A DNA stretch of 64,000 nt. It comes from Flectonema sp. DT1601. Lineage: Eukaryota. The stretch lies in the NCBI GenBank assembly GCA_964019425.1, contig OZ025780.1, positions 124,001 to 188,000 of the forward strand. The letters run 5' to 3'. Made by a program: the position numbers and the translations under genes. Under the pieces are notes generated by a model. It saw only the letters and a list, made by a program, of their open reading frames with translations, made no database searches and had not been told where the DNA came from. Positions 12,759 through 62,440 of this stretch are shown in pieces; the first letter of the stretch is position 1; each line of letters opens with the position of its first letter.

Positions 12759-14744
12759 ATTTTTCTTTGTTCCCACCTTATGATTTTCTTGAAGAAAGAA
12801 AATAGAAGTCATAATGGTGCTTCCCTCTGGAAGGGTTGTAAGCCATGGTGTCCAACTAAATTAAAGGACAAGTCTGGGATAATCCCTGCCAGAGGGGCGA
12901 GTATTCTACCATGGTTGAAATACTCTGGCAACTGATCTTCAATTTTATGTTGTTTGTTAGCTGCTGGTGTATCTTGATCATGTGTTGATACTTGCATATG
13001 TTTATTTGTAATCTTCTATTACAATTCTCTTTCTGTTCTGGTCTGTTACTTCATTTGTCTTTTTTAACTTCAGTTATATCCATTTTACTTTTTATTGTTT
13101 CCCATCTACCTTTTATTTTCTATTAGTTCTGGTCAGAAACTCCTGGGCAGCAAGAAGGAAAGCAGTTAAGTACTTCTGGGTGTTTGGCATCACCCCCCAT
13201 AGTGAGCAAGTACAACAGGTAGCATTGGTAGTCTGTTGATCCTGAGTGATCCCAGCTACAGTTTTGTTTTTCTTTCTTTTTTTTAGAACAAGATCAGGAC
13301 ATCCAAGCACTGCTGGATAGTTGCTGAATGCAGGGCCTGCCTGTGATTATAATAACAGGCTAAGTCATTTGTAGTTCATAGTTTACCTTTGATTTTATAA
13401 CTTCACATAGGTACTATGAACGATGAGAGATCCAGTGGGATCACTCAGGGTCTAGTAGAGACCACCAATGTTGTGCGTTGATAGGCAAGGTGACCAACCT
13501 TGACATTCTTTCTTTTCTCTCCTGTTGTGACAAACACAAAATACACACACAGCTTACAGTGTGTTCTTTGTGTATGTTTTCTTCAGGTGTGAGTAGTTTT
13601 TTTGTTCTTGCTCTTCAGGGAGGGCCTTAGCCAAAAGCTAACAGTCCAAATCTCACCTGGTAACTTAACCCTGAAGCATCGTAGGCTACCAGTTTCCTTC
13701 GAGAATCCGCAGATGGTGCAGGGCTAAACCGAGATGAGGAAGATAACACCCGCACACGGATGTTGAGATAACGTTTGTATGATGTTCATCCGGCTTGACG
13801 AGATTAGCAAAGACAAATACTCACGGATAGGTTGGGTTGTTCGTCAGGTCCTGATAGTTTTCTCAGCCTCTGGAAGTTTTACTGAGTGTATGTTTTCTTC
13901 AGGTGTGAGTAGTTTTTTTGTTCTTGCTCTTCAGGGAGGGCCTTAGCCAAAAGCTAACAGTCCAAATCTCACCTGGAAATTCAACTCAGTCCTTGTCAGT
14001 TTTGGCATCAAACCTGTAATGGTTTAATCATTACAGGTTATTTACTGAAATATTTGTTCTAAAAGTTGCTAAGTATTTCTCACTTAGAAATTTTTTATTT
14101 TTTTATTTTCAGCTTAATTAGCTACAAATTGTTTCTACTAAGTGTTTCTCACTTAGATTTTTTTTTTTGCTTTTCAGCTCCTTAAAAGCTGCTAAGTGTT
14201 TCTGCTAAGTGTTTCTCACTTAGAATTTTATTGTTATGTTCGTTTTCTATCCCCTCTTCTATCCCTTTTGTTCAAAAAAAGCGATGAGAAATTTCTCTCA
14301 TTCATGCTAAGATGCACTCTGAACTTTGATTTTTTGATCTGAGTGTGAGGGAATGACCTGTTAGTGCATTGGGCATAAGCTGGGCTGCAGTTTAGATGTC
14401 TTAGGTGTTAATAGGGGGTTCCTCTTAGCATTTTTCTTTGTTACCACCTTGTGATTTTCTTGAAGAAAAAAAATAGAAGTCATAATGGTGCTTCCCTCTG
14501 GAAGGGTTGTAAGCCATGGTGTCCAACTAAATTAAAGGGGAATTTCGATAAAGTGGGAAGTAACGGACTGGGAGCTTTTGGCTCCTGCCCTATTCCCGAT
14601 GTAAACTTTCTTTTTATTTTTATTTTTTTTTTTTAACAGGCCCAAAGGGCGACAATGATGGTTGCTGACCAAGGAATAATATTCAAATGAATTTTCGTTT
14701 CAAAGAAACGAACAGAATTGAGAGAGAGGCAGAGAAAAAAAAAA

Positions 14745-16315
14745 GGGCAAACTAGTGTTTACTACACAAATAGTTTCAGAACTAACCATTCATTACAAAA
14801 TCCAAAATGGCTGGGGGACCCAAAAACTGTATATGGGATGCATCGAGACCCGCACCTGTCTTTAAGAGCGGATGTGGTTCAGCGGAGGGAGCACTGACTT
14901 TGGATACCCGACGCCCAGGCTCAATCCCGACCAACGTCATTTTTTTTTTCACCGGATTTTTTCACCCAGAATAGGTATTAAGCTGGGGTATAGTGCAAGG
15001 GGGGGGCTTGCGTTCCGCCAAGAACTTGGCGGAACGCAAGCCCCCCCCCCAACCCCCCCCAAGGGGGGGGAGCCACTAATAAAAGCCAACCTCTCCCGTA
15101 CAAAGTCCAACCTCAAAAAACAAATTTGCTACTAATGGATATTAAGCTGGGAAGAGTGCAAGGGGGGGCTTGCGTTCCGCCAAGTTCTTGGCGGAACGCA
15201 AGCCCCCCCCCCAACCCCCCCCAAGGGGGGGTTGTATGTTCGATTTTGTAAAAATTACAACTGTGTTGTATCATAAAAACATAAAGATAATTTAACATTA
15301 GTTTTAAATACAGTGACTAAGGGTGATGCGCAACTTAGCATATTAAAGTAACTATAGGTTTCGAGAGTAATCCATATACCTCTTACCTCTATTCTCTCTC
15401 ATCAGTATGGTGTAGAAGTAAGTCAGTCAAATGTTGAGACTGAGTCATTCCAGTTTGCAGGACTGGAATGTAGTTACTTTGTGTTTCATGTTCATAAATA
15501 AAAAAAACATATTTTTTGCTGTTACTAGTTCGTAGCTCACTACTAGTGGAGCACTTTTCTACAATACATGTAGAAAGTGTTTTTAATTATCAAAGTCTGA
15601 TAATTGTTCCTTAGCATCAGGGATATCTGGAGTTGAAGATCTCTGTGAAATACTCATATCATCTGAAGAATCATGTTCATCTTGTTTGCTTCTTTTCTTT
15701 CGAGTATTTCTTCTGAGCATCGGTCTCATTGGACTCTGCGAGTTGAGTCTTTTTACCAATTTCAGTTTCTTCTTTTCCTTTCCCTTTGCTAATTTCTGTT
15801 TTTGTACTTCTTTAAGTTTCATTTTCTGTGCCAACTTATGTTCAGTACACTCATTTTTAAGCCTTTTCCGGTTGCTCAGGTATTTTTTGATTCTCACAAT
15901 TCGCATTGGACTCTGTGAGTTCAGTCTCTTGTTACCGCTTCTCTCTGGTTCATCAGCGACCGTTTGTGTTCCAAGGGGGGGGAGCCACTAATAAAAGCCA
16001 ACCTCCCCTGTACAAAGTCCAACCTGAAAAAACAAGTTTGCTACTAATGGATGTTAAGCTGGGGAAGAGTGCAAGGGGGGGGCTTGCGTCCGCCAAATTC
16101 TTGGCGGGACGCAAGCCCCCCCCCCAACCCCCCCCAAGGGGGGGGAGCCACTAATAAAAGCCAACCTCCCCGTACAAAGTCCAACCTGAAAAAAAAATCA
16201 GGAAAAAAAAAAAATGCCCTCACCCAGGATCGAACTGGACGGTTTACAGCCATTTTGGATTTTGTAATGAATGGTTAGTTCTGAAACTATTTGTGTAGGA
16301 AAGACCCCTTTACCC
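14745..16315. mobile_element. Non-autonomous TIR element (MULE-like), inserted in a poly(A) run
   Basis: ~70 bp imperfect TIRs with GGG termini and core ctacacaaatagtttcagaactaaccattcattacaaaatccaaaatggctg. Absent from the equivalent sites at 38825, 49650 and 60210. Confidence 0.85.
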
Positions 16316-16564
16316 AAAAAAAAAAAAAAAAAAAGAAAGAATAGAAAAAAAAAAATATGAAGAGGAAATAATCAAACATGAAAAAAAAAAAAAAACAAAA
16401 TATAAATAAAAAACGTTGTATGAAAAAGGAAAAAAAGAAAAAAAAAAGACCAGAAAAGGAAAGAGAAAATGAAAAGGTATAATATTATTGTGGGGATATG
16501 AGGATAGCAGGGAGATGCTCTTTTTTTTTTTTTTTTTTTTTTTTTATTTATTATTTAAAAAAAG

Positions 16565-16659
16565 GAAACAATCAGTTTAGCGTCTCGATCAGGACGGAAA
16601 ATAGAAATTAATCGACATAGTCGATCGATAGAAAAAAAACAATGATAACATTGTTTATT

Positions 16660-16693
<34 letters not shown>

Positions 16694-16947
16694 CTTTTAA
16701 TTATTTTAAAGAAAAAACAATCAGTTTAGCGTCTTGACCAGGACGGAAAATAGAAAGTAATCGACATAGTCGATCGATAAAAAAAAAACAATGATAACAT
16801 TGTTTATTCCTTTTTTTTTTTTTTTTTTTTTATTCTTTTCATTTATTTTTAAAGAAAAAACAATCAGTTTAGCGTCCTGACCAGGACGGAAAATTGAAAG
16901 TGATCGACATAGTCGATCGATAAAAAAACAATGATAACATTGATTAA

Positions 16948-16980
<33 letters not shown>

Positions 16981-17769
16981 TTTTAATTATTTTTTAAAGA
17001 AAAAACAATCAGTTTAGCGTCTTGACCAGGACGGAAAATAGAAAGTGATCGACATAGTCGATCGATAAAAAACAATGATAACATTGTTTATTCTTTTTTT
17101 TTTTTTTTTTTTTTTTTTTAATCCTTTTTATTATTTTAAAGAAAAAACAATCAGTTTAGCGTCTTGACCAGGACGGAAAATAGAAAGTGATCGACATAGT
17201 CGATCGATAAAAAAACAATGATAACATTGTTTATTCTTTTTTTTTTTTTTTTTTTTTAAATTCTTTTTATTTATTTTTAAAGAAAAAAAAACGGAAAATA
17301 AAAATCAGTCGACAAAGTCGAACGATAAAAAAAAAACAATGATAACATTGTTTATTCTTTTTGTTTTTGTTTTTTTTTATATTCTTTTTTATTAATTTTG
17401 AAAAAAAAACAATCAGTTTAGCGTCTTGACCAGGACGGAAAATAGAAAGTAATCGACATAGTCGATCGATGAAAAAAAAACAATGATAACATTGTTTATT
17501 CTTTTTTTTTTTTTTTTTTTTTTAATTCTTTTTATTTATTTTTTAAAAAGAAAAAAAAACGGAAAATAGAAATTAGTCAACAAAGTCGAACAATAAAAAA
17601 AAAAAAACAATGATAACATTGTTTATTCTTTTTTTTTTATTTTTTTTTTATATTCTTTTTTATTAATTTTCAAAAAAAAACAATCAGTTTAGCGTCTTGA
17701 CCAGGACGGAAAATAGAAAGTGATCGACATAGTCGATCGATAAAAAAAAACAATGATAACATTGTTTAT

Positions 17770-17802
<33 letters not shown>

Positions 17803-19410
17803 CCTTTTTATTATTTTTAAAGAAAAAACAATCAGTTTAGCGTCTTGACCAGGACGAAAAATAGAAAGTGATCGACATAGTCGATCGATAAAAAAACAAT
17901 GATAACATTGTTTATTCTTTTTTTTTTTTTTTTTTTTCTAAATCCTTCTTATTATTTTTTAAAGAAAAAACAATCAGTTTAGCGTCTTGACCAGGACGGA
18001 AAATAGAAAGTAATCGACATAGTCGATCGATAAAATAAAAACAATGATAACATTGTTTATTCCTTTTTTCTTTTTTTTTTTATTCTTTTTATTTATTTTT
18101 AAAGAAAAAACAATCAGTTTAGCGTCCTGACCAGGACGAAAATTAGAAAGTGATCGACATAGTCGATCGATAAAAAAACAATGATAACATTGTTTATTCT
18201 TTTTTTTTTGTTTTTTTTTTTTTTATTCTTTTTATTTATTTTTTAAAGAAAAAACAATCAGTTTAGCGTCTTGACCAGGACGGAAAATAGAAATTAGTCG
18301 ACAAAGTCGATCGATAACAAAACAATGATAACATTGTTTATTCTTTTTTTTTTTTTTTTTTTTTTTATTCTTTTTATTTATTTTTTAAAGAAAAAACAAT
18401 CAGTTTAGCGTCCTGACCAGGACGGAAAATAGAAAGTAATCGACATAGTCGATCGATAAAAAAAACAATGATAACATTGTTTAATCTTTTTTTTTTTTTT
18501 TTTTTTTATTCTTTTTATTTATTTAGAAAAAACAATCAGTTTAGCGTCTTGACCAGGACGGAAAATAGAAATTAGTCGACAAAGTCGATCGATAAAAAAA
18601 CAATGATAACATTGTTTATTCTTTTTTTTTTTTTTTTTTTTTAAATTCTTTTTATTTATTTTTTAAGAAAAAAAAGAAAATAGAAATTAGTCGACAAAGT
18701 CGAACGATAAAAAAACAATGATAACATTGTTTATTCTTTTTTTTATTTTTTTTTTTTATATTCTTTTTTATTAATTTTGAAAAAAAAAAACAATCAGTTT
18801 AGCGTCTTGACCAGGACGGAAAATAGAAAGTAATCGACATAGTCGATCGATAAAAAAACAATGATAACATTGTTTATTCTTTTTTTTTTTTTTTTTTTTT
18901 TTTAAATTCTTTTTATTTATTTTTTAAGAAAAAAAAACGGAAAATAGAAATTAGTCGACAAAGTCGAACGATAAAAAAACAATGATAACATTGTTTATTC
19001 TTTTTTTTATTTTTTTTTTTTTATATTCTTTTTTATTAATTTTGAAAAAAAAAAAACAATCAGTTTAGCGTCTTGACCAGGACGGAAAATAGAAAGTAAT
19101 CGACATAGTCGATCGATAAAAAAACAATGATAACATTGTTTATTCTTTTTTTTTTTTTTTTTTTTTTAAATTCTTTTTATTCATTTTTTAAGAAAAAAAA
19201 ACGGAAAATAGAAATTAGTCGACAAAGTCGAACGATAAAAAAACAATGATAACATTGTTTATTCTTTTTTTTATTTTTTTTTTTTTATATTCTTTTTTAT
19301 TAATTTTGGGAAAAAAAAAAACAATCAGTTTAGCGTCTTGACCAGGACAGAAAATAGAAAGTAATCGACATAGTCGATCGATAAAAATACAATGATAACA
19401 TTGTTTAATC
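16565..19410 (-). repeat. Hairpin satellite array in copy A 3' UTR (~145 bp and ~120 bp units)
   Basis: atcagtttagcg recurs at 16571, 16720, 16863, 17008 and onward. Short units lack the atcagtttagcgtcttgaccagg block. Confidence 0.95.
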
Positions 19411-20519: not shown

Positions 20520-20912
20520 GGTAATTGTCCTTCCATGCTTTGCACCTGTCGAAATAATAAAACTTAAAAACTACACACGCACCAATAACAAGCGATTACA
20601 CTAGAACGCGCGATTGCAAGAACACCCTGGTTCAAGGTGGCTCGCTGCGGCGGGGTAACTGAAGTCCGTTTTCGTTGGACTCAGCTCCACCACGGGGTGG
20701 AGGGGTGAGGAGGGTGGGCTTCGAAAACGTGAGTGTGAGAGAAAGAAGTGATCGAGCTGTATAAAGAATTTCTTTTTGAAAAAATAGAAGGCTAAAGAAT
20801 ATATAAAAAATGTCTGTTGTTTTGTTCATTTTTCCAACTTCGGAATCATACACTTTTCTGTCTGATTCCTTTGATTATTTCTTTCCGGTGCTAAGCTTGG
20901 TGGAAAATTACC
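20520..20912. mobile_element. ~390 bp MITE with GGTAA termini (Merlin-like?)
   Basis: Absent from the other copies. ~40 bp imperfect TIR: ggtaattgtccttccatgctttgcacc versus ggtaattttccaccaagcttagcacc. No clean TSD. Confidence 0.65.
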
Positions 20913-21378
20913 TGAATGAATTCTAGAAAAAGAAAGGACCGATTAATTGGGGCTTTGATTGTATTCCCAAGGCATGTTTTTTTTTTTTTTTTTTTTATTA
21001 TTCATTTACATTATTATTTTTTTTTTTTTTTTTTAAATTAATAATCACATTTTGTTCAAAAATATTTCATATTAGAGTAAAAGAAAAAGAAAAAAAGAAA
21101 TAAGAGAAAAAAAAAAAAAAAACCATTGCTGGCCCCCTCACCACTCATAGAGGATGAGGAGGCCAGTAAGGCGTCACTCAAATCTATGCCAAGCCTTGGG
21201 AACTTGGATTGGGGTTTAGACCATTTATAATTAACAATTAACAATTAACCTGATTAACGTTATGATCTGACGGACATAAACATATCGATAAAATAATACA
21301 AACAAAAACGAACAATAAATAATAAATAAGCTAAAAAACTAAATAAACAAAGTGATGTGAAAGTAAGGAAAAAGAGAA

Positions 21379-36800: not shown

Positions 36801-37280
36801 GGCATGTTCGATACACCCAGAGACACCTTTCCTAAAGCCTTTTTGAAAATTAAATTTAGAAAGAGTGTGGCTTGCGACGGCTTCCTGAATAACCGTATTA
36901 AAAATTTTCCCGTCGCAGTTGCCCACAGCTATCGGTCTCGTTTTCGAGATGTCTTTCCCATCGGAGTTGGGCTTTGGGAGCATTGTTACAAATGCTAAGC
37001 CCCAACTATCCGGATAGGCCTTGAGTTCGAAAATTCTCTTTAATACCTTGTAAAGTGCTTCCATAAAAGTTGGGACCTTTTTCCATACAACATAAGGTAT
37101 GCAATTGGGACCAGGGGCACATTTGTTTTTTTTCTTTGATAAGAGAATACCAAACTGTTCGAAGCTCGGGAACTGGATATCATCCATTGTCTTGTAGTCA
37201 GACTTAGGTAAAAAAGAGGGATGGGTGAAATCAGTTTTTTTTTTTTTCATTGTCACAATAATTGTTTTTAAAATGTTCAA
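33847..37280 (-). pseudogene. Copy A ORF2 (RT, CCHC knuckle, RLE, part of the extension), interrupted at 33847
   Basis: Matches the 1406 aa ORF up to ESKI. Confidence 0.9.
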
Positions 37281-49012: not shown

Positions 49013-49894
49013 AGCCTCGGGGGCTGGGTTGGCTGAGAGATGGTTGCCAGTATCTTTATGACACCGCCGGCCCGGTGTTTCTTTTTTTTTTTGTTGTGAA
49101 GTAGCAATAATAAAAAAAAAAAAAAATAGAAAAGAGAATGGCTCAGAAACAATATCGATGAGTTAAGATCTTTTTTTTAAACTATTCCTTTTTTTTTAAT
49201 TTCGGGCAGCTAACCCTAGAGTTTTTTTTTGGTAAATACTGTTTAAAGGAAAACGAGCTACGCTCTAAAACAGAAAAATCGGAGTAACTACTTGTTTATA
49301 ATATATATTTTGATAAATAATGTGGTTGGCAAATGAATGCCGAAGAGGCAACTTGAGAAAAGCAATTGGATGAGAAGAAACATTGGGTCTTATAAAGCAA
49401 AGGAGATAGAGGGGCCTAAAAAGACCGCAGAGTGGATAGCTCCACAAAAGGCTGAATTTCGATAAAGTGGGAAGTAACGGACTGGGAGCTTTTGGCTCCT
49501 GCCCTATTCCCGATGTAAACTTTCTTTTTATTTTTATTTTTTTTTTTTAACAGGCCCAAAGGGCGACAATGATGGTTGCTGACCAAGGAATAATATTCAA
49601 ATGAATTTTCGTTTCAAAGAAACGAACAGAATTGAGAGAGAGGCAGAGAAAAAAAAAAAAAAAAAAAAGAAAGAATAGAAAAAAAAAAATATGAAGAGGA
49701 AATAATCAAACATGAAAAAAAAAAAAAAACAAAATATAAATAAAAAACGTTGTATGAAAAAGGAAAAAAAGAAAAAAAAAGACCAGAAAAGGAAAGAGAA
49801 AATGAAAAGGTATAATATTATTGTGGGGATATGAGGATAGCAGGGAGATGCTCTTTTTTTTTTTTTTTTTTTTTTTTATTTATTATTTAAAAAA

Positions 49895-49990
49895 AGGAAA
49901 CAATCAGTTTAGCGTCTCGATCAGGACGGAAAATAGAAATTAATCGACATAGTCGATCGATAGAAAAAAAACAATGATAACATTGTTTAT

Positions 49991-50023
<33 letters not shown>

Positions 50024-50277
50024 CTTTTAATTATTTTAAAGAAAAAACAATCAGTTTAGCGTCTTGACCAGGACGGAAAATAGAAAGTAATCGACATAGT
50101 CGATCGATAAAAAAAAAACAATGATAACATTGTTTATTCCTTTTTTTTTTTTTTTTTTTTTATTCTTTTCATTTATTTTTAAAGAAAAAACAATCAGTTT
50201 AGCGTCCTGACCAGGACGGAAAATTGAAAGTGATCGACATAGTCGATCGATAAAAAAACAATGATAACATTGATTAA

Positions 50278-50310
<33 letters not shown>

Positions 50311-52890
50311 TTTTAATTATTTTTTAAAGAAAAAACAATCAGTTTAGCGTCTTGACCAGGACGGAAAATAGAAAGTGATCGACATAGTCGATCGATAAAA
50401 AACAATGATAACATTGTTTATTCTTTTTTTTTTTTTTTTTTTTTTTTTAATCCTTTTTATTATTTTAAAGAAAAAACAATCAGTTTAGCGTCTTGACCAG
50501 GACGGAAAATAGAAAGTGATCGACATAGTCGATCGATAAAAAACAATGATAACATTGTTTATTCTTTTTTTTTTTTTTTTTTTTTTTTTTAATCCTTTTT
50601 ATTATTTTAACCCTCTAATAAGAGGCTAAAAACCCTGTTTTTGAGAAAAATCGAAAAAATTGACAAAGGAGAAAAGGGGTGTGGGGAAAAATACAAAAAA
50701 ATTACAGGGTGAAAGACACCCCCCCGCGCATTGAAAAAAAACTGAGGTCAGCCCGCAAGGGGGCCAAAATAACTTGAGAAAATGCAACAACAGCCTAAAA
50801 AAACACTGTTACTTAGGACCCCCGGGTTCGCTTTGATTTTGGCAATGTTGTAGGAGTAGAGTGCTTCCGTTTCATGTTTTTCGGTGGGATATGATTGTGT
50901 GTAGCAAAGGTATGGTTGTTGCAAACAGGGGCTGAATACTTGTCAATATTTTCGTGATATTGTTCGAAGCAGGGATCCATGCATAAGAAAACCTCGCTTT
51001 TTGAACAAGAAATCGATGACGTTACTTTTTTTGAGAACAAACCCGTGAACTGCAGTCCCCAAAAATACCGAATTTTCGTAGGTAGTGACATTTTGTGTGA
51101 GTTTGGTGTGTTCCGTGAACAATAAGTTGAGAACATAGCCTCTTTTTGAACTGAGCATATGTCCCGACGTCTTTTTCAGACTTCTTTTGGAGGGTGAAAA
51201 CATTGAAGATAGAAATCTCTAACAAGTAGTGAAAGACTTTCAGGGTCCAGCGTTTTGTCATCAGAGTTCTTCTTGCCTTCCCCCTGATACCGTCTACGAG
51301 GTCAACACCACCCATCAGTTTGTTGTACTGATGGATCTGTACCAGTAAGTCGATAGTCACTTTTTGATAGATTTCCTTATTTTAGTCCATCACGTGGCTG
51401 TCTCATAATTCTCCTCGAGAGGCAATGTGCTGAAGACATGTACTTCTTTTGGATTGTCCCTGAATTTATGTGATGCACATTGTGCTAGGACTGAAAGTAC
51501 GAGGCAGAGAACTTCTCCACCCGTCCCTGCGCCTCCGCCTTATTAATCTTGGACCATTTGGGAACTATTGTTTCCCAAAAGCTGCGGATTTTGTAGAGCT
51601 TGTCAGTAGGTACGGGGTTGGTGACAGTGTAAAACTTTAGATTGGTTAAAAAACAATGATAACATTGTTTATTCTTTTTTTTTTGTTTTTTTTTTTTTTA
51701 TTCTTTTTATTTATTTTTTAAAGAAAAAACAATCAGTTTAGCGTCTTGACCAGGACGGAAAATAGAAATTAGTCGACAAAGTCGATCGATAACAAAACAA
51801 TGATAACATTGTTTATTCTTTTTTTTTTTTTTTTTTTTTTTTATTCTTTTTATTTATTTTTTAAAGAAAAAACAATCAGTTTAGCGTCCTGACCAGGACG
51901 GAAAATAGAAAGTAATCGACATAGTCGATCGATAAAAAAAAACAATGATAACATTGTTTAATCTTTTTTTTTTTTTTTTTTTTTATTCTTTTTATTTATT
52001 TAGAAAAAACAATCAGTTTAGCGTCTTGACCAGGACGGAAAATAGAAATTAGTCGACAAAGTCGATCGATAAAAAAACAATGATAACATTGTTTATTCTT
52101 TTTTTTTTTTTTTTTTTTAAATTCTTTTTATTTATTTTTTAAGAAAAAAAAGAAAATAGAAATTAGTCGACAAAGTCGAACGATAAAAAAACAATGATAA
52201 CATTGTTTATTCTTTTTTTTATTTTTTTTTTTTATATTCTTTTTTATTAATTTTGAAAAAAAAAAACAATCAGTTTAGCGTCTTGACCAGGACGGAAAAT
52301 AGAAAGTAATCGACATAGTCGATCGATAAAAAAACAATGATAACATTGTTTATTCTTTTTTTTTTTTTTTTTTTTTTTTAAATTCTTTTTATTTATTTTT
52401 TAAGAAAAAAAAACGGAAAATAGAAATTAGTCGACAAAGTCGAACGATAAAAAAACAATGATAACATTGTTTATTCTTTTTTTTATTTTTATTTTTTTAT
52501 ATTCTTTTTTATTAATTTTGAAAAAAAAAAAACAATCAGTTTAGCGTCTTGACCAGGACGGAAAATAGAAAGTAATCGACATAGTCGATCGATAAAAAAA
52601 CAATGATAACATTGTTTATTCTTTTTTTTTTTTTTTTTTTTTTAAATTCTTTTTATTTATTTTTTAAGAAAAAAAAACGGAAAATAGAAATTAGTCGACA
52701 AAGTCGAACGATAAAAAAACAATGATAACATTGTTTATTCTTTTTTTTATTTTTTTTTTTTTATATTCTTTTTTATTAATTTTGGGAAAAAAAAAAACAA
52801 TCAGTTTAGCGTCTTGACCAGGACAGAAAATAGAAAGTAATCGACATAGTCGATCGATAAAAATACAATGATAACATTGTTTAATCTTTT
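49895..52890 (-). repeat. Hairpin satellite array in copy C, interrupted by a piggyBac fragment
   Basis: Same units as the other arrays. Confidence 0.95.
50611..51645 (-). mobile_element. piggyBac 3' fragment (duplicate of 39787-40821)
   Basis: Same junctions and near-identical sequence. Confidence 0.85.
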
Positions 52891-54444
52891 ATAATTTTTT
52901 ATTTTTTTTTGTTTTAAAAAAAAAAAAAAAAACAAGCGGAATTGATCATAATGGGTGGTAGGGGTTGTTATAACTTCGTTTGAAAATTCTTCTTTTTTGA
53001 TTTCTTTTTTTTTTTCTTTTTACAGGAGTTAAGATCACTGTCAGGAGACAACACATTAACAAGAGCAGCAAGCAGAGTTGACACTATCAATTCAAATTTG
53101 AAATACCGGGAATTAATTTACAAGGAGGTATCTCAAGTGACTTGGTATCTCTAGCGTGTCGGTATCTCTGGAGTGCTGGTATCTCGTATGTGCGTTGGTA
53201 TCTCATGAGTGATGGTATCTCTTGTGCATTAGAGAAACGAAAAAGAATGTCATGACCATGACGGAAGAATTGAGGAATTGAGTTAACATGTTCAATTTAA
53301 CTTATTTAAACTTTTTTTTTTTTTTAACAGACCGTAACTATTTGAAAATAAAATGTAGATGGGAAACAGTGAAAAGTAAAATGGATGATAAAATTAAATG
53401 AGAAATATGACATAACAGACCAGATAGAGAGTATTAAAAGGAAATTGAAAAGGAAAAGAGAAACTAGGTTAACACTTATTTAAAATTAAGACCGGTTAGT
53501 CAGTTTAAGGTCTTGACTAGGACCAACAAAAAAGAAAGAAAAAAAATTAACGATCAAGCTGAGCTGATCTTGTTTTTATTACAAATAGGGGAGCGGGAGG
53601 GATGGAAGGAATAGAGGAAAAAAAAAGAAAAGGTTGATCATTTGGATCTGATCGTCGAGAAGAAGAAATTATTTTAAAGGTTGATCGGTATAGCCGATCG
53701 TTGAGAAAAATAAACAGATATAAATACAATCAGTTTAAATTAAAAAAAGAAAAAAAGATTAACGATCAAGCTGAGCTGATCTTGTTTTTATTTAAAATTA
53801 GGGGAGCGGGAGGGATGGAAGGAATAAAGGAAAAAAAAAAAAAGGTCGATCAATTGGAACTGATCGTCGAGAAGAAGAAAACAATTATTTATAAAAAAAA
53901 AAATGGTCGGTATAGCCGATCGTTGAGAAAAGAACAGATATAAATACAATCGGTTTTGGTGATCGACGAGTGGAGCGATCACTTGACAAGAAGGAAAAAG
54001 AAAGGACCGATTAATTGGGGCTTTGATTGTATTCCCAAGGCATGTTTTTTTTTTTTTTTTTATTATTCATTTACATTATTATTATTTTTTTTTTTTTTTA
54101 AATTAATAATCACATTTTGTTCAAAAATATTTCATATTAGAGTAAAAGAAAAAGAAAAAAAGAAATAAGAGAAAAAAAAAAAAAAAAACCATTGCTGGCC
54201 CCCTCACCACTCATAGAGGATGAGGAGGCCAGTAAGGCGTCACTCAAATCTATGCCAAGCCTTGGGAACTTGGATTGGGGTTTAGACCATTTATAATTAA
54301 CAATTAACAATTAACCTGATTAACGTTATGATCTGACGGACATAAACATATCGATAAAATAATACAAACAAAAACGAACAATAAATAATAAATAAGCTAA
54401 AAAACTAAATAAACAAAGTGATGTGAAAGTAAGGAAAAAGAGAA

Positions 54445-57400
54445 TTACAAGGGGGTGGAGTCACCGTGAACGTCATCAGCAGAACATCTCCTTCGATTGT
54501 AACGATATCTTGATGGAGGGGTTCGTTTTTTCAGAGTTGAACGCTCAGACTTTCTCGGCGGAGTTTCATTTTCCTCATGTTCTTCTGTGTCTGGCGGACT
54601 CAAACCTTCTGCCCATGAAGCTAATTGGAACTTCAGGGCCGCAATTTGAGACCGTGCCAAGGCGAGTTGAGCATTTAAATCGCTCGCCAGTCCCGTTAAC
54701 ATCATGGATTGCTCAAGCTGCTCTGCGTGAGTTGTACACCGTTGGTGATTCAGCTCCGAGAGGCGAAGTTGGGCATCCAGAAGTTGTTCTGAGAGCTCTG
54801 CCGCTTTCTCGTTTGTTTCGAGAGAGTCATCTACTGCTCGACAGTAATTCTCGAGTAAGTCAATCCTACCCTCGGACCATTGTCTCGCAATAGGTGTATT
54901 CTCTTTAACGGAGATAACGTGACTCTCTTGTCGTAAAATCTTGGTCGGCGTGCGGTCGAGAGCTTCACTCTGCGGCATTGTCGGAGGAATTGAGGCTAGA
55001 GGACAAAGAGGGGTGATATAATTAAGGGTAGGGATAAGGGGTTTAATAAGAGGAGTAAAAAGACTACTCGTAGTTGTAAAGAGCGAGAGGTAGTTCTTTG
55101 CTATCTTCATCATAGCAACAGATTCATACAGAACGGGGGTTCGGGGGGAAACTTGTTGACTAAAGTGGGTCATACGGGGACGCGCGGCACGCAAACTCTC
55201 GACCTCCTGTTGAGTATAGAAAAGTCTTATTTTACTTTCTCTTTCCTCATTACATTTGGTCTCCAATTCGTTCGACAGAAGAACAAACCTTTGATGGTAA
55301 TTAAAGAGCGCCATTTCCGATAGGTCTGCTCTCTGAGTCAGATTTGCGAGCTCACGTTTCCTGTAATCTTCCACTAAGTCATATTGTCGAACTAGTGCAG
55401 AAAGAGAAGTCTTCGATTCATCGCGTTCTGCTGTTAACCGTTGAATTACTCCTTCCAGAAGTTCATATTCTTTTCTATCTTTTTCAATAATTAAAACAGG
55501 GGGCGCAGGAGGAAGTGAGGATGGATCCTGGTTGGTAGCTTTGATCTCAACAGGTAATCCATTTAGTAACTGCTTGTCTTTCTCGAGGGAGGCTGACATC
55601 GCATTAAAGTAAAATAAAAATAGAACATAAAAAATTCGTTCTTTCATTTGCTCTAATTCGTTTTCTAAAATCTGGCATTTCAAGGAAAGTTTCAGCCTTA
55701 ATTTTCCTTCTTTTTTTTTGTACAAGGGGGTTTGAGAACCCATGTCAGATTGAGTTCTTATCACTATAGCGAAATCAGCAGGAAGTGTTTGCGATCCCGT
55801 TGACATGAGTTCAGGTGGGGGAGTCTGGAAAGAGATGGAAGAAATAGAAGAGAATGACAAGGAGAGTCCAGTGAGCTCATCCTCATCTAACAAAACAGAA
55901 GGGGCCGGGGAGGAAGAACCATTGGCAATAAGTAGAATAGAAAGAGCCGATGCGTAACAAGTTTGCCAGATAAAACATTTCTCAAGCCACGATCTTTCAA
56001 TGGTGAGCTTTTCGATCGTTTTCAGTTTTGTTACTTTGTGGATTTTGACTTCTTCCACAGGGAAGATTTCTTTACCATCTTTTATAAAACTTGCAGTGGC
56101 AGGTTCTTCTTTAATGCTGCGCATTAGTGGTCTTGAATGCCACGTGGGGAGGTTCCTCGTCTGGAACAGAACATATGAGCACTGTCTGGCGATTCTGGTG
56201 CATTCACAAAATAAAGCTTTTGTTGGTGCTAAAGGTGAACCGATGTGACGTGTCCAGATGTTCAGCTGGTCCATGCAGATGTTTCCTCGTACGCCAACTT
56301 CAATAGTAAAAATGTTACAGTCGAAGCCATTAGCGATGATCGAGTCTCTTAGCTTTAGGTATTTCTTTTCCTTTAAGACATGAGAGGTTTCGAAACGATC
56401 TTCATTTGGACACGTCAGCTCCAGAATCAGTGCTCTTTTCGCAAAAAAAGAATAAATAAAAATGTCTGGTCTTAGAGAGGACGAGACATGGCACACTTCA
56501 AGAGGAACAATTAGGCGGTTATCACCGACATCGTCGAGGATGACCCAATCATTCGCTAGTGAAAGTTCGCCTGTCTCTTTAGAAATTCTTTCTAGGGGTT
56601 TATTTTCCCCTGTTTTTAAAAAAGTTTGAGAGGGAGGCGGGAGGTTTTCTTTTCTTTTGTTGGCTTTTATTATCAACTCTTCCAAGAAGATAACAATGCG
56701 TTTTAGAACGCTGTCGTGACGCCACGTGAACCTCCCTTGTGTTAAAGAGACAGGACAGCCTGTTAAGACATGCCTGAGGGTAGGATTCACTTTGCCACAC
56801 AAAACACAATTTTGGTCCACATTGGTGATGTTCCACCTCTTTAAATTATCTTGTGAGGGGAGGGTGTTTGTAACCGCTTTCAGTTGAAATGAGATATAGG
56901 CAGGATTTCCCTCCCTAAGTACCTTATTCCAGGTGAAGTCGTTTATCATACATTTAGACCACTCCTTCCATTGACCTTGGACTTGTAATTTATTCAAAGA
57001 GTTCAGTAGTTCATCTGTGGCTTCCACTTCAAAACGCTTAAGGAGATCGGGGCGAGTAGTACGTAGATCGCGCAATCGGTGACCAAGACCAGCTGATTGC
57101 TTCGCAAGAGAACGGTAAGAAAAAAACTTAATAAGGCGCTCCCACTCAGCAGAAGCTGAAAACTTTTTCGACCAGTTGGACGATTTCTCCATAATAACAT
57201 TGTAGACACCGTGCATGTCAGAGTCCTGTGAGGATCTGAGGATGTCTAGTTTAATTGATTGCGCTTGTTTATATAGCGTCTCAACTCTTTTGTGTCTGAG
57301 ACCAACAGTGTTCTTTGAACCGGTAAAAAGGATGACTGTGTTCGCAGAGCGGACAAATCCCCACCATTTCTTCAAAAAAGGTTTAATAATTTTGTCCATT

Positions 57401-58665
57401 TTTTTGGCAAAAGGGAGAGATAAGTCATGGATCATTAAACTCCATGTTAACCTTGACAATAACAAGTGTTGGACAGACCAAGCCTTCTGAGACCCATATA
57501 GTGGCATGGCGTCGACTTTTTTTAAAAAATTCCTGGTAAAAGTGGTCAGGCGCTCTCGCAATTTCTGTTCTTTGGCGTTCGGCTCAAACCAACGCCCGAG
57601 GTATTTGAACTCTCCAGCTTCCTGGAGATTCGTAATCGGAACATTGTTAATCTTCAGGTCCGGGTTAGCTGGTTTCCCTTGTACAAAGCTGTGGGCAATG
57701 CATTTCTGGGGTTTCGCTTTCATACCTCGAGACCAGGAAAGAAACTGTTCGAGCGACTTGATTAGCAATTTTGCCCCCGCCTTTGATGACGTGGTAAGTT
57801 GTAAATCATCAGCAAAAGCTGCAACTAATAGTTGGAGGGATTTATTGTTAAACTCGTAGGCTTCCTGTTGATGAACTGCTAAGGAAAAGAGCAGTAGTTG
57901 GAATACCAAATTAAAAAGGGTTGGGGAGGAAACGCAGCCTTGAAAGACACCAACTTCAAAAGGGATAGTGGGCGTCAGGCCTTCTCCAACTCTGATTTGG
58001 ACGCGCATGGAGGAATAATACCTTTTATAGAAACCGATTATTCTTTCGTGAATTCCGAAATATTTTAAAGCAAAGAAAATTAATTGATGTTTGACTGAGC
58101 CGAAAGCATCTGCCAAATCCACCCAGACAATTGTTAGGTTTTTCCGGAGAGCTTTCACTTCTTTAAAAATCTCTGAGGTGATCGTGGCATGTTCGATACA
58201 CCCAGAGACACCTTTCCTAAAGCCTTTTTGAAAATTAAATTTAGAAAGAGTGTGGCTTGCGACGGCTTCCTGAATAACCGTATTAAAAATTTTCCCGTCG
58301 CAGTTGCCCACAGCTATCGGTCTCGTTTTCGAGATGTCTTTCCCATCGGAGTTGGGCTTTGGGAGCATTGTTACAAATGCTAAGCCCCAACTATCCGGAT
58401 AGGCCTTGAGTTCGAAAATTCTCTTTAATACCTTGTAAAGTGCTTCCATAAAAGTTGGGACCTTTTTCCATACAACATAAGGTATGCAATTGGGACCAGG
58501 GGCACATTTGTTTTTTTTCTTTGATAAGAGAATACCAAACTGTTCGAAGCTCGGGAACTGGATATCATCCATTGTCTTGTAGTCAGACTTAGGTAAAAAA
58601 GAGGGATGGGTGAAATCAGTTTTTTTTTTTTTCATTGTCACAATAATTGTTTTTAAAATGTTCAA
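54445..58665 (-). CDS. Retrotransposon ORF2, copy C (RT + RLE + extension)
   Basis: Same 1406 aa translation as copy B. Confidence 0.95.
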   Translation of the reverse strand: MNILKTIIVTMKKKKTDFTHPSFLPKSDYKTMDDIQFPSFEQFGILLSKKKNKCAPGPNCIPYVVWKKVPTFMEALYKVLKRIFELKAYPDSWGLAFVTMLPKPNSDGKDISKTRPIAVGNCDGKIFNTVIQEAVASHTLSKFNFQKGFRKGVSGCIEHATITSEIFKEVKALRKNLTIVWVDLADAFGSVKHQLIFFALKYFGIHERIIGFYKRYYSSMRVQIRVGEGLTPTIPFEVGVFQGCVSSPTLFNLVFQLLLFSLAVHQQEAYEFNNKSLQLLVAAFADDLQLTTSSKAGAKLLIKSLEQFLSWSRGMKAKPQKCIAHSFVQGKPANPDLKINNVPITNLQEAGEFKYLGRWFEPNAKEQKLRERLTTFTRNFLKKVDAMPLYGSQKAWSVQHLLLSRLTWSLMIHDLSLPFAKKMDKIIKPFLKKWWGFVRSANTVILFTGSKNTVGLRHKRVETLYKQAQSIKLDILRSSQDSDMHGVYNVIMEKSSNWSKKFSASAEWERLIKFFSYRSLAKQSAGLGHRLRDLRTTRPDLLKRFEVEATDELLNSLNKLQVQGQWKEWSKCMINDFTWNKVLREGNPAYISFQLKAVTNTLPSQDNLKRWNITNVDQNCVLCGKVNPTLRHVLTGCPVSLTQGRFTWRHDSVLKRIVIFLEELIIKANKRKENLPPPSQTFLKTGENKPLERISKETGELSLANDWVILDDVGDNRLIVPLEVCHVSSSLRPDIFIYSFFAKRALILELTCPNEDRFETSHVLKEKKYLKLRDSIIANGFDCNIFTIEVGVRGNICMDQLNIWTRHIGSPLAPTKALFCECTRIARQCSYVLFQTRNLPTWHSRPLMRSIKEEPATASFIKDGKEIFPVEEVKIHKVTKLKTIEKLTIERSWLEKCFIWQTCYASALSILLIANGSSSPAPSVLLDEDELTGLSLSFSSISSISFQTPPPELMSTGSQTLPADFAIVIRTQSDMGSQTPLYKKKEGKLRLKLSLKCQILENELEQMKERIFYVLFLFYFNAMSASLEKDKQLLNGLPVEIKATNQDPSSLPPAPPVLIIEKDRKEYELLEGVIQRLTAERDESKTSLSALVRQYDLVEDYRKRELANLTQRADLSEMALFNYHQRFVLLSNELETKCNEERESKIRLFYTQQEVESLRAARPRMTHFSQQVSPRTPVLYESVAMMKIAKNYLSLFTTTSSLFTPLIKPLIPTLNYITPLCPLASIPPTMPQSEALDRTPTKILRQESHVISVKENTPIARQWSEGRIDLLENYCRAVDDSLETNEKAAELSEQLLDAQLRLSELNHQRCTTHAEQLEQSMMLTGLASDLNAQLALARSQIAALKFQLASWAEGLSPPDTEEHEENETPPRKSERSTLKKRTPPSRYRYNRRRCSADDVHGDSTPL

Positions 58666-59572
58666 TTATTTTTTCCTCTGGAATATCAAGGGAGGGGGGT
58701 TGAGGATCTTCTTTTTGGAGTTCTTCTTTTATGGCAGTAAACGGATTTTGACGAAATTTATCTTGTAATTTTTTGAATAAATTTTTCTTTTCTAAATTCC
58801 GATACATTCGGAAAATCCTTTTCATTCTCGTTCTTGCCTCTTTCCATTTGACAGCGTTCTCTATAGAAGGCCCAGATTTGCGGAGCTCCTGTCTTAGCTG
58901 TTTCATTTCCAGACGACATTCAAGTTTTTCTTGGTCGAGGATGACCTCTTCCCTTGATTTCTGTTTGCGGGGTAAATTCCGCTTTGTTTCTTCAAAGAAA
59001 CCGCTACATATTTGATAAACCGTTTTGAGTAGTTTATCAAGTTGGTCGGCAGGTTTTGAAGAGTTTTCTGTTTCGACGGTGAAAGTTTGAAGTTTTTCTG
59101 CAGCAGAAACGTCGATGTCCTTCCATTCAGTTCCAAAAGATCGGAATTTGAGACGAGACGGGTGTAACGGGGTAAAAGTGGGTGTTGTAGAGTTATAAGG
59201 AACGAAAGCTGTTTGTGAAGTTTTAAAATCTACAGATTCTCCTACAAAGGGAGGTTCCAGGTCTGAATTATTCCCTGTGAGGGGAGACAGAGGTGTACCT
59301 TTACATGTACCGTTAACACAGTGTTTCGCTCTCGTAGCGATACTTTTGAAAAGCTTACCACATTCTGGACAAGGTAAGTGGTAACAATCTTTAACTTGGG
59401 AGTGGGTAGATGGGGGAAAACGTGACTTATAGTCCTTAAATTCCTTACTAAACTTACAGTTACGTCTAAAATGCGCAACTGGACCTTTGAGGTATGTCTC
59501 AAAACATAAAGGACATTTGGCTACTAAAGTTTTATCCCCATCCAGAGCCGATCTCGAAATAGCCTCTTGCAA
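58616..59572 (-). CDS. Copy C 5' ORF (zinc fingers)
   Basis: Same translation as the other copies. Confidence 0.8.
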   Translation of the reverse strand: MQEAISRSALDGDKTLVAKCPLCFETYLKGPVAHFRRNCKFSKEFKDYKSRFPPSTHSQVKDCYHLPCPECGKLFKSIATRAKHCVNGTCKGTPLSPLTGNNSDLEPPFVGESVDFKTSQTAFVPYNSTTPTFTPLHPSRLKFRSFGTEWKDIDVSAAEKLQTFTVETENSSKPADQLDKLLKTVYQICSGFFEETKRNLPRKQKSREEVILDQEKLECRLEMKQLRQELRKSGPSIENAVKWKEARTRMKRIFRMYRNLEKKNLFKKLQDKFRQNPFTAIKEELQKEDPQPPSLDIPEEKIIEHFKNNYCDNEKKKN

Positions 59573-60015
59573 AGCCTCGGGGGCTGGGTTGGCTGAGAGA
59601 TGGTTGCCAGTATCTTTATGACACCGCCGGCCCGGTGTTTCTTTTTTTTTTTGTTGTGAAGTAGCAATAATAAAAAAAAAAAAAAATAGAAAAGAGAATG
59701 GCTCAGAAACAATATCGATGAGTTAAGATCTTTTTTTTTAAACTATTCCTTTTTTTTTAATTTCGGGCAGCTAACCCTAGAGTTTTTTTTTGGTAAATAC
59801 TGTTTAAAGGAAAACGAGCTACGCTCTAAAACAGAAAAATCGGAGTAACTACTTGTTTATAATATATATTTTGATAAATAATGTGGTTGGCAAATGAATG
59901 CCGAAGAGGCAACTTGAGAAAAGCAATTGGATGAGAAGAAACATTGGGTCTTATAAAGCAAAGGAGATAGAGGGGCCTAAAAAGACCGCAGAGTGGATAG
60001 CTCCACAAAAGGCTG

Positions 60016-60552
60016 AATTTCGATAAAGTGGGAAGTAACGGACTGGGAGCTTTTGGCTCCTGCCCTATTCCCGATGTAAACTTTCTTTTTATTTTTATTT
60101 TTTTTTTTTAACAGGCCCAAAGGGCGACAATGATGGTTGCTGACCAAGGAATAATATTCAAATGAATTTTCGTTTCAAAGAAACGAACAGAATTGAGAGA
60201 GAGGCAGAGAAAAAAAAAAAAAAAAAAAAGAAAGAATAGAAAAAAAAAAATATGAAGAGGAAATAATCAAACATGAAAAAAAAAAAAAAACAAAATATAA
60301 ATAAAAAACGTTGTATGAAAAAGTAAAAAAAGAAAAAAAAAGACCAGAAAAGGAAAGAGAAAATGAAAAGGTATAATATTATTGTGGGGATATGAGGATA
60401 GCAGGGAGATGCTCTTTTTTTTTTTTTTTTTTTTTTTTTATTTATTATTTAAAAAAAGGAAACAATCAGTTTAGCGTCTCGATCAGGACGGAAAATAGAA
60501 ATTAATCGACATAGTCGATCGATAGAAAAAAAACAATGATAACATTGTTTAT

Positions 60553-60585
<33 letters not shown>

Positions 60586-60839
60586 CTTTTAATTATTTTA
60601 AAGAAAAAACAATCAGTTTAGCGTCTTGACCAGGACGGAAAATAGAAAGTAATCGACATAGTCGATCGATAAAAAAAAAACAATGATAACATTGTTTATT
60701 CCTTTTTTTTTTTTTTTTTTTTTATTCTTTTCATTTATTTTTAAAGAAAAAACAATCAGTTTAGCGTCCTGACCAGGACGGAAAATTGAAAGTGATCGAC
60801 ATAGTCGATCGATAAAAAAACAATGATAACATTGATTAA

Positions 60840-60872
<33 letters not shown>

Positions 60873-61657
60873 TTTTAATTATTTTTTAAAGAAAAAACAA
60901 TCAGTTTAGCGTCTTGACCAGGACGGAAAATAGAAAGTGATCGACATAGTCGATCGATAAAAAACAATGATAACATTGTTTATTCTTTTTTTTTTTTTTT
61001 TTTTTTTTTTAATCCTTTTTATTATTTTAAAGAAAAAACAATCAGTTTAGCGTCTTGACCAGGACGGAAAATAGAAAGTGATCGACATAGTCGATCGATA
61101 AAAAAACAATGATAACATTGTTTATTCTTTTTTTTTTTTTTTTTTTTTAAATTCTTTTTATTTATTTTTAAAGAAAAAAAAACGGAAAATAAAAATTAGT
61201 CGACAAAGTCGAACGATAAAAAAAAAACAATGATAACATTGTTTATTCTTTTTGTTTTTGTTTTTTTTTATATTCTTTTTTATTAATTTTGAAAAAAAAA
61301 CAATCAGTTTAGCGTCTTGACCAGGACGGAAAATAGAAAGTAATCGACATAGTCGATCGATGAAAAAAAAACAATGATAACATTGTTTATTCTTTTTTTT
61401 TTTTTTTTTTTTTTAATTCTTTTTATTTATTTTTTAAAAAGAAAAAAACGGAAAATAGAAATTAGTCAACAAAGTCGAACAATAAAAAAAAAAAAACAAT
61501 GATAACATTGTTTATTCTTTTTTTTTTATTTTTTTTTTATATTCTTTTTTATTAATTTTGAAAAAAAAACAATCAGTTTAGCGTCTTGACCAGGACGGAA
61601 AATAGAAAGTGATCGACATAGTCGATCGATAAAAAAAAACAATGATAACATTGTTTA

Positions 61658-61692
<35 letters not shown>

Positions 61693-62440
61693 CTTTTTAT
61701 TATTTTTAAAGAAAAAACAATCAGTTTAGCGTCTTGACCAGGACGAAAAATAGAAAGTGATCGACATAGTCGATCGATAAAAAAACAATGATAACATTGT
61801 TTATTCTTTTTTTTTTTTTTTTTTTTCTAAATCCTTCTTATTATTTTTTAAAGAAAAAACAATCAGTTTAGCGTCTTGACCAGGACGGAAAATAGAAAGT
61901 AATCGACATAGTCGATCGATAAAATAAAAACAATGATAACATTGTTTATTCCTTTTTTCTTTTTTTTTTTATTCTTTTTATTTATTTTTAAAGAAAAAAC
62001 AATCAGTTTAGCGTCCTGACCAGGACGAAAAATAGAAAGTGATCGACATAGTCGATCGATAAAAAAACAATGATAACATTGTTTATTCTTTTTTTTTTGT
62101 TTTTTTTTTTTTTATTCTTTTTATTTATTTTTTAAAGAAAAAACAATCAGTTTAGCGTCTTGACCAGGACGGAAAATAGAAATTAGTCGACAAAGTCGAT
62201 CGATAACAAAACAATGATAACATTGTTTATTCTTTTTTTTTTTTTTTTTTTTTTTATTCTTTTTATTTATTTTTTAAAGAAAAAACAATCAGTTTAGCGT
62301 CCTGACCAGGACGGAAAATAGAAAGTAATCGACATAGTCGATCGATAAAAAAAAACAATGATAACATTGTTTAATCTTTTTTTTTTTTTTTTTTTTTATT
62401 CTTTTTATTTATTTAGAAAAAACAATCAGTTTAGCGTCTT
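60016..62440 (-). mobile_element. Copy D: terminal 2.4 kb of the 3' UTR, 5'-truncated within the satellite
   Basis: Matches copy A 14541-18550 unit for unit (without the MITE) and breaks mid-unit at gcgtctt|acaagtctgg. Confidence 0.9.

Follow-up and report, generated by a model that had tools for sequence, protein, structure and literature searches.

A 64,000-nucleotide (nt) stretch of contig OZ025780.1 of Flectonema sp. DT1601 (GenBank assembly GCA_964019425.1, positions 124,001 to 188,000 of the forward strand; hereafter the window) contains a 47.9-kb inserted block (14540..62440, minus strand), which is a head-to-tail array of one retrotransposon family and amounts to three and a quarter copies of a 10.6-kb R2-like element. 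The block was delimited by self-comparison, and its flanks are seamless in a paralogue of the target. The element is read on the minus strand and, from high to low coordinates, the order of its copies is P, C1, C2 and C3. P (60015..62440) is a 5'-truncated tail fragment of 2,426 bp with an A-type tail, a 'pseudo-LTR' (LTR, long terminal repeat) at the 5' edge of the array. C1 (49454..60014; 10,561 bp) and C2 (38630..49453; 10,824 bp) are full units with B-type tails. C3 (14540..38629) is a full unit with an A-type tail, reaches 24,090 bp with three nested insertions and adjoins host DNA with its 3' end. All four lie on the minus strand.

Self-BLAST and repeat finding on the window revealed direct repeats of 10,560-10,825 bp with 99.5-99.9% identity that span 14540-62440 and are beyond chance. 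The three internal joints are the same across at least 60 bases on each side (at least 120 in total), reading ...ccactttatcgaaattc|agccttttgtggagc..., and have the form ...cgaaatt(c)|agcctttt with zero host DNA within them; the same terminus, ...tatcgaaattc, adjoins host DNA at 14540. P and C3 share 99.46% identity between 60211-62440 and 16316-18550. An earlier, sequence-only reading of this DNA had described a head-to-tail array in which each full copy is preceded by the 3' end of its neighbour, and the near-identical direct repeats and the three identical joints bear this out. The 'three full copies' of that description are indeed full units, but they are not of similar size, as the third measures 24 kb through its nested insertions.

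An uninterrupted paralogue of the target (12759..13025) lies just outside the block, with the empty site at 12867/12868. The two host halves match it at 97.2% (12759-12867 and 14430-14538) and 95.6% identity (12868-13025 and 62441-62599); therefore, the insertion was exact, with neither a target-site duplication (TSD) nor a deletion. No extra bases are present at the host junctions if the 3' end is read as ...gaaattc, and otherwise one or two, depending on the terminal c. Thus, the clean split without TSD that had been reported is supported by the paralogue, and the 'two extra G' shrink to zero to two bases. The host target itself belongs to a tandem duplication of about 1.7-2.0 kb (12759-14538 and 62441-64000; 98.7% identity between 13008-14108 and 62897-64000), which has pieces of 270-460 bp in common with 11187-11822. 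At the other edge of the array, P starts within a satellite monomer, directly beside host DNA. This 5' end (62440) comes right after a GTC of the monomer (minus strand ...cctggtc|aagacgc...), and GTC is the commonest hammerhead cleavage triplet; as a clue to a ribozyme the observation is post hoc, has no supporting core motif and was given zero weight.

The order of parts in C1 is a 292-nt leader, open reading frame (ORF) 1, ORF2 and a tail of 4,991 bp. ORF1 (58616..59722, minus strand) has 368 amino acids (aa) from stop to stop and C2H2-like CxxC...H motifs, with a weak match to Pfam zf-C2H2_4 (E 0.19). ORF2 (54445..58665, minus strand) has 1,406 aa from stop to stop, or 1,396 aa from the ATG, and comprises a reverse transcriptase (RT; Pfam RVT_1, E 5.6e-26, residues 92-347), a CCHC knuckle (Pfam zf-RVT, E 5.4e-7), a restriction-like endonuclease (RLE), read in the sequence as ...RPD...ELT...K... 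C-terminal to the RT, and an extension. Its best relatives of solved structure are R2 proteins (E 1.8e-32 to 3e-29), with LINE-1 ORF2p (LINE, long interspersed nuclear element) at about 1e-19. Residues C620, C623, H632, C637, D712, D734 and E749-L-T are invariant in 30 aligned proteins, i.e., ORF2 and 29 relatives. With an RT, a CCHC knuckle and an RLE, preceded by a putative zinc-finger ORF, the element is, by its predicted proteins, a non-LTR retrotransposon of the R2 superfamily (RLE type). The assignment to RLE-type elements made earlier is hereby upheld by the two Pfam matches, the invariant endonuclease residues and the closeness to R2. No match to GIY-YIG was found, an RLE being present instead, and the likeness to Penelope-like elements discussed below is one of layout only.

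In each full copy, ORF1 shares 50 nt with ORF2, which is in another frame (58616-58665, 48055-48104 and 37230-37279). Contigs of two public sequencing runs (X1 and X2) lack one letter at 48060, within the overlap, so that both frames would be continuous there; the difference is a real variant or else a homopolymer error of the assembly. In two relatives (P0003 and P0004), C2H2 Pfam domains are fused to the RT. Past the endonuclease, ORF2 continues for about 646 aa (54445-56385, minus strand), an unusual appendage for an R2-like protein; the extension has no match to a Pfam family, and its neighbours in the protein atlas are weak and coiled-coil-like (0.83). Protease domains of the Ulp1-like and USP kinds occur in some relatives at 28-29% identity, and the named hits are 'uncharacterized protein' entries only. 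An Ulp1-like domain has been described for NeSL/Utopia among the five RLE clades defined by RT phylogeny, to which belongs also HERO, a clade of RLE elements mostly without target specificity (PMC4640811).

Of the unit, first given as 10.5 kb and measuring 10.56 kb in C1, only about 5.6 kb are 5' untranslated region (UTR) and ORFs, the other 5 kb being tail. In C1 the tail (49454..54444) is composed, in reading order on the minus strand, of a unique part (52911-54444), a first satellite array of a 142-bp repeat (51648-52910), a short piggyBac derivative of about 1,037 bp (50611..51647, boundaries good to about 3 bases), a second array of the 142-bp repeat (49854-50610) and the terminal 400 bp (49454-49853). 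What the derivative retains of a piggyBac transposase gene is the C-terminal end (Pfam DDE_Tnp_1_7, E 8.8e-6), and the piece is bounded as TTAA|CCCTCTAAT...ATTGG|TTAA. A TTAA duplication is typical of piggyBac, and its presence on both sides marks the piece as a cut-and-paste insertion into DNA. In C2 the derivative lies at about 39787-40823 and is 99.9% identical to the piece in C1; C3 and P are without it and have about 895 bp of satellite in its place. The copies thus fall into two tail types, B in C1 and C2 and A in C3 and P. Repeat spacings of 10,824 and 10,561 make C2 longer than C1 by 263 bp, a difference that would lie in the satellite, which has a 264-bp period. Over 7,109 aligned columns, one 1-bp indel is the sole difference between the bodies of C1 and C2. 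Between C3 and C1/C2, we counted eight variant columns, mostly homopolymer indels, one of them being a placeholder at the site of a nested insertion.

Three nested insertions were identified in C3. The largest, N (22165..33846, plus strand), is an inverted, 5'-truncated copy of the array family that interrupts ORF2 of C3 at a point corresponding to 55228. It ends with the 3' terminus of the array (...cgaaatt), has no TSD and includes 4.3 kb of satellite. Since this independent copy carries both the satellite and the terminal 400 bp, the satellite is part of the element and not of the host. Compared with the array copies, N is 99.45% identical in the ORF part, about 91% in the unique part of the tail and 97% in the last 400 nt, with the last 170 nt or so identical; such a mosaic may reflect a tail that evolves fast, or else recombination or a template switch between subfamilies. 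N is itself interrupted by a MULE DNA transposon (24914..27956) with a transposase ORF on the minus strand (25854-27470; Pfam MULE, E 9.2e-9; SWIM, E 2.5e-7), terminal inverted repeats (TIRs) made of 20-bp repeats and a 9-bp TSD, TTAATTTAA. The second insertion is a 1.57-kb element (14745..16315) in the terminal tail of C3, with 56-bp TIRs (14758-14813 against 16302-16247, inverted, 98%), and is not found in C1, C2 or P. The third, 404 bp long and of unknown kind (20522..20925), is present in C3 only, N also being without it. All three (the TIR element, the 404 bp and N with its MULE) are thus in C3 and none in C1, C2 or P; by a rough estimate, the chance of this is about 0.03 if insertions fall evenly over the approximately 34 kb of native array.

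As N ends at the same terminus, ...gaaatt(c) is the true mobile end, and the boundary in the array is one of tail end to head end. Several features are those of target-primed reverse transcription (TPRT): the 3' end is fixed at the host junction, at the three joints and in N, and 5' truncation has occurred within the tail (P) and within ORF2 (N). The element resembles R2 in this truncation and in being without the long TSDs of LINEs of the apurinic/apyrimidinic endonuclease (APE) type. It differs from R2 proper, which is site-specific, in that its flanks are a non-rRNA host repeat and its second target lies in the ORF2 of another copy of the family. No obvious sequence is common to the host site and the site at which N entered ORF2. 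A target motif common to these two sites and the 5' end of the element was considered and rejected, as the likeness is weak, T-rich and out of register.

One conceivable origin of the array is by successive independent insertions at the same bond, each primed where the upstream host DNA meets the 5' end of the copy already present, C3 being the first and P the last. Such 'double insertion' is a published route to dimers of transposable elements (TEs), which are then enlarged by unequal exchange (McGurk and Barbash 2018, PMC5932611). It would agree with the appearance of C3, which has most nested insertions and looks oldest, with an upstream host half-site that stays intact after each insertion, and with the site specificity often seen in RLE elements (PMC4640811). 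The two targets known here are unlike, however, and three further independent insertions at the very same bond are therefore unlikely; N sits in unrelated sequence, so that specificity looks low, and no insertion is present in the paralogous site, which is 97% identical and lies at a distance of 1.7 kb. Moreover, the 5' end agcctttt... is out of register as a substitute for the downstream half-site cctttaat..., and one nick would have to be repeated exactly three times with no base added or lost. Joints formed by double insertion carry a copy of the target duplication (PMC5932611), whereas the joint in the window has no host base and the element makes no TSD. We regard this origin as improbable.

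The ends of the block look like those of one TPRT product, one host junction having the canonical 3' end and the other a truncated 5' end. To this extent, the description of the locus as one 48-kb insertion was apt; its interior, with a piggyBac derivative in C1 and C2 only, a single indel between these two and nesting confined to C3, points to later growth. The whole array could have been made in one event by three serial jumps (over A, B, B and truncated A templates) or by rolling reverse transcription on a circular RNA, and besides the outer ends this would account for joints that are all identical and bodies that are 99.9% alike; R2 proteins do jump serially in vitro (PMC11371274). It would, however, require a transcribed B-type master containing the piggyBac derivative and used twice, along with A-type RNA also used twice, and so takes more assumptions than a DNA-level duplication of C1 and C2. 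A circle would give identical units and not two tail types, and all nested insertions are in C3. Compared with any known TPRT product, a cDNA of 34 kb would also be very long. Little credence can be given to a single event.

Unequal exchange, in turn, needs a pre-existing tail-body-tail arrangement and therefore cannot create the first host-free joint. With no target duplication in the joint and with low specificity, a process at the level of RNA or cDNA is left, either a jump or a longer-than-unit RNA. Our preferred account, held tentatively and at a little under an even chance, is that the first joint was target-primed and arose by a template jump, and that the array then expanded at the DNA level by unequal crossing-over. 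During TPRT, the RT would have copied one element RNA up to its 5' end and jumped to the 3' end of another, leaving a tail-to-head joint. A partial dimer (P+C) would have formed first, and a further unit would have been added by unequal exchange; the piggyBac derivative would then have inserted into the satellite of the middle unit, and duplication of this unit would have produced C1 and C2, with nested insertions into C3 accumulating along the way. We infer both the jump itself and the order of these events. The piggyBac derivative in C1 and C2 only, the single indel between them and the confinement of all nested insertions to C3 indicate that one or more units were most likely added later by unequal exchange, and the simplest account of C1 and C2 is a DNA-level duplicate made after the derivative had landed in the array. 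For R2 proteins, jumps from a full-length cDNA to a further 3' UTR RNA are reported, and in human cells transgene repeats in head-to-tail order have been described, as have head-to-tail and 'tandem insertion' junctions (PMC11371274).

We looked at the layout of relatives of the element in 80 metagenome contigs, retrieved by a profile of ORF2 residues 1-760, with proteins 25-36% identical. In 17 of the 44 contigs with a length of 3.9 kb or more, the first 48-419 nt recur at the end or close to it, and in 16 of these the overlap is of normal complexity (in L018 it is poly-A only, and this contig was set aside). Eleven of the overlaps are imperfect (92-99%), which means that the contig runs into a slightly different neighbour copy and not round a circle. 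The implied units of the 17 contigs measure 3.7-4.7 kb; ten contain one ORF of 994-1,379 aa and a spacer of 290-840 nt, and the other seven, with a longest ORF of 526-901 aa, are presumably broken copies. A six-frame profile search detected two consecutive elements on one strand in 11 of the 80 contigs, the C-terminal end of the first preceding the N-terminal part, or a fragment of the tail, of the second, and an opposite-strand neighbour was matched in 0 of the 80. The tail-to-head joints that the sequence-only reading attributed to the family thus recur in relatives (16/44 redundant, 11/80 consecutive and 0/80 inverted).

One contig, L016 (1-5007), has two RLE families of about 70-80% nucleotide identity head to tail, about 335 nt apart and with the tail RNA of the first between them, and this pair is not explicable by duplication or assembly collapse. 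L079 is a circular permutation of L078, and overlaps connect the end of L026 with the start of L025 and the downstream region of L015 with the start of L005; in an assembly graph, a long array looks the same as a tail-body-tail structure. With families defined at nucleotide identities of at least 90%, some head-to-tail evidence is found in 21 of the 38 that have a contig of at least 3.9 kb. No ribozymes, small RNA genes or rRNA of Rfam were detected in 20 of the loci at the gathering threshold or in 15 loci with E up to 1, so the tandems of the relatives are not explained by insertion into arrays of those small RNA genes that Rfam covers. In five contigs (L021, L028, L048, L068 and L074), a repeat of about 20 nt (...CTGGAAGAGACAGTTGAC...) forms arrays immediately before the ORF, which may be protein-binding or promoter repeats.

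Two structured RNA motifs were identified at the joints of relatives. The first, of about 95 nt, is located at the extreme 3' end of the tail in one subgroup and is predicted to have five helices, namely a closing helix, two hairpins and two loop-to-downstream pseudoknots. In its alignment 91% of cells are paired, compared with 31-46% when the partners are slid, and compensatory change is seen in 22 of 37 pairs. A covariance model places it at 17 positions in the 80 loci, always in the sense strand and always downstream of an ORF (L017:1162-1263, L023:3207-3308, L028:4174-4275, L016:3574-3676 and 13 more); one of them is between the two different elements of L016. This RNA is better conserved than the ORFs (e.g., 88% against 72% for L023 and L052), has no Rfam match, and could be an RT recognition element or a ribozyme. 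The second motif, found in spacers of four other families (L078 and L079 representing one of them), is hammerhead-like, with CUGANGA, GAAA, a UH site and three covarying arms (L068:3068-3140, L074:3638-3726, L077:1271-1340, L078:5018-5090 and L079:562-634, all sense). The descriptor matched five loci in sense, none in antisense and none in 800 shuffles. The order of its strands fits none of the natural types I-III and one linker is very short; whether it would fold and cut is doubtful, and we take it as a lead.

Neither motif was found in the element of the window: the hammerhead-like descriptor had no match on either strand, and the tail-RNA model gave nothing convincing (best E 0.07). The satellite monomer (...CCTGGTCAAGACGCTAAACTGATTG...) was considered as a counterpart of the tail hairpin of relatives and rejected, the best hit of the R1 covariance model (E 0.07) being within the nested TIR element. 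An Rfam scan of 49000-60500 with E up to 5 returned no ribozyme, small RNA gene or rRNA.

The relatives bear on the other RNA-level origin of the joint, that by a regular longer-than-unit RNA, which has been proposed for Penelope-like elements and HeT-A and which would start in the upstream tail (its satellite monomers), the latter acting as promoter, and run through the next unit to its 3' end. A tail fragment plus a full unit would be deposited at each full retrotransposition, and the start of P would then be the 5' end of such an RNA and no truncation. Tail-to-head joints are kept across diverged families, spacers are colinear in L017/L035 (78-82% nucleotide identity) and L012/L009 (87%), and the spacers contain two structured RNA motifs. 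The tail of the window element has tandem monomers, as do the promoters of mouse L1. A partial upstream copy joined to a full copy is, in addition, the pseudo-LTR layout of Penelope (PMC8969392). Against this stand the failure to find any known ribozyme or promoter in the unit or either motif of the relatives in the window, and the fact that precise end-to-end jumps would keep the joint equally well. Furthermore, transcripts exceeding three units (34 kb) are implausible, and the extra units would still need jumps or exchange. On balance, we hold a longer-than-unit RNA, the main rival of the jump, to be rather unlikely.

The proposed jump followed by unequal exchange has also to be weighed against a number of observations. 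Serial jumps involving two species of RNA would also yield the observed order of tail types, P(A), C1(B), C2(B), C3(A); the absence of extra bases from all three joints fits one origin followed by copying and is silent on how the first of them came about, and a longer-than-unit RNA would yield an identical joint. Sequence alone cannot separate a jump from such an RNA. The copies of the family examined are those of the window. No contig of runs X1-X4, mapped to 46500-49853, bridges the joint 49453|49454; cover is zero at 49076-49411, the 5'-most 340 nt or so of the element, in all four runs, and the contigs end at the 3' terminus of the element. In one contig of X1 this 3' end is next to other DNA, as expected from any dispersed copy. 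The contigs of the relatives are short-read metagenome assemblies, their proteins, at only 25-36% identity, are distant from the window family, and the rate of 16/44 stands without a control-clade baseline. At least one relative, L023, occurs as a solo copy, with 9 kb of unrelated DNA after it.

The same data raise the issue of an assembly artefact, in which a single insertion or a dimer was over-expanded by the assembler. The near-identity of C1 and C2 and the lack of bridging contigs for their joint in X1-X4 would be expected from it. Yet the units are distinguishable by two tail types, the 263-bp difference in length and the nested insertions of C3 only, the joint unites an independently defined 3' end with a 5' end, and relatives in unrelated assemblies have a like layout; an artefact is thus very improbable. 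The array is real as far as the source assembly goes, this assembly being what it rests upon. Seven public runs, from seven studies and with seven organism labels, carry the element at 99% identity or more in fragmentary contigs, none of the runs listed being RNA, and the exact 24-nt pattern of the 5' end had 0 matches in metagenome contigs and 0 in genome contigs.

The locus combines known kinds of behaviour, namely jumping of the R2 type, partial tandems in the style of Penelope and expanding TE dimers, and is not a new life cycle. The 'unusual life cycle' that had been suggested was overstated, since Penelope pseudo-LTRs, R2 jumping and tandem R2 insertions are published (PMC8969392, PMC11371274). 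Penelope-like elements form pseudo-LTR partial tandems and are 5'-truncated on insertion (PMC8969392), and they share with the array a 5'-truncated copy directly upstream of a full copy in the same orientation. Some relatives of the element have ribozyme-like motifs at their joints, as Penelope-like elements have hammerheads (PMC4209133). The two differ in their enzymes, a telomerase-like RT with GIY-YIG in Penelope and an R2-like RT with a CCHC knuckle and a PD-(D/E)xK-type endonuclease in the window element, which also has no hammerhead match and three full units compared with one in Penelope. R2 inserts specifically into 28S rDNA and depends for its processing on a 5' ribozyme like that of hepatitis delta virus (HDV; PMC3774820), whereas the window element is in non-rDNA, at two unrelated targets, has no ribozyme match, and possesses a 5-kb satellite-bearing tail and the 646-aa C-terminal extension. 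In the two-step model of TE dimers, a dimer arises first, mostly tail-to-internal in non-LTR elements, and is then enlarged by recombination (PMC5932611); the duplication of C1/C2 fits the second step.

Head-to-tail chains of non-LTR elements, similar to the array in the window, are found at telomeres. In Drosophila HeT-A, the 3' end of the upstream neighbour acts as promoter, and the RLE-bearing GilM/GilT of Giardia are arranged in tandem. These arrays (HeT-A/TART and GilM/GilT) grow at chromosome ends, unlike the array in the window, which is interstitial, between the halves of one host sequence. In the open-access papers searched, with Repbase reports and subscription journals outside the scope, we did not find partial tandems described as a habit of RLE elements.

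The presence of the layout in about half of the relatives' families able to show it suggests a habit of the clade, not an accident. One may go further and suppose that a whole clade of R2-like (RLE) retrotransposons, including the window element, multiplies as head-to-tail chains through concatemeric or longer-than-unit RNA, a tail-to-head joint coming with every new insertion and the tail being a promoter and/or a processing signal; we consider this generalisation possible, though rather unlikely. The signal in the tail would be the 142-bp monomers in the window element and the double-pseudoknot RNA or the re-ordered hammerhead-like motif in relatives. If true, such a chain-multiplying clade would be the LINE counterpart of Penelope pseudo-LTRs and retrozymes. 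A clade habit would change the curation of unit boundaries, pseudo-LTRs and 'circular' contigs, and would raise the testable question of the tail as a promoter or processing signal for the next copy. Template jumping of the R2 type is well documented in vitro and in engineered human cells, and its natural genomic products are rarely pinned down. With an empty-site paralogue, precise joints and distinguishable units, the locus is a natural record of a non-LTR element becoming a tandem array, the first step from a transposon to satellite DNA.

Outside the array, the left flank (8391-10677) contains old, rearranged pieces of a related element (ORF2-like at 73% and tail-like at 88-91% identity), including 1.2 kb of the 142-bp satellite in opposite orientation (84-92%), so the region had previously been hit by the element family. 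Further upstream, two long uninterrupted host ORFs are encoded on the minus strand, a protein kinase (2821-3732) and a PABP-like protein with four RRM domains and without a PABC domain (5819-7339). The latter has no relative above 44% identity among 5.8 billion clusters, and only generic RRM clusters were matched in the atlas. The host is a divergent eukaryote.

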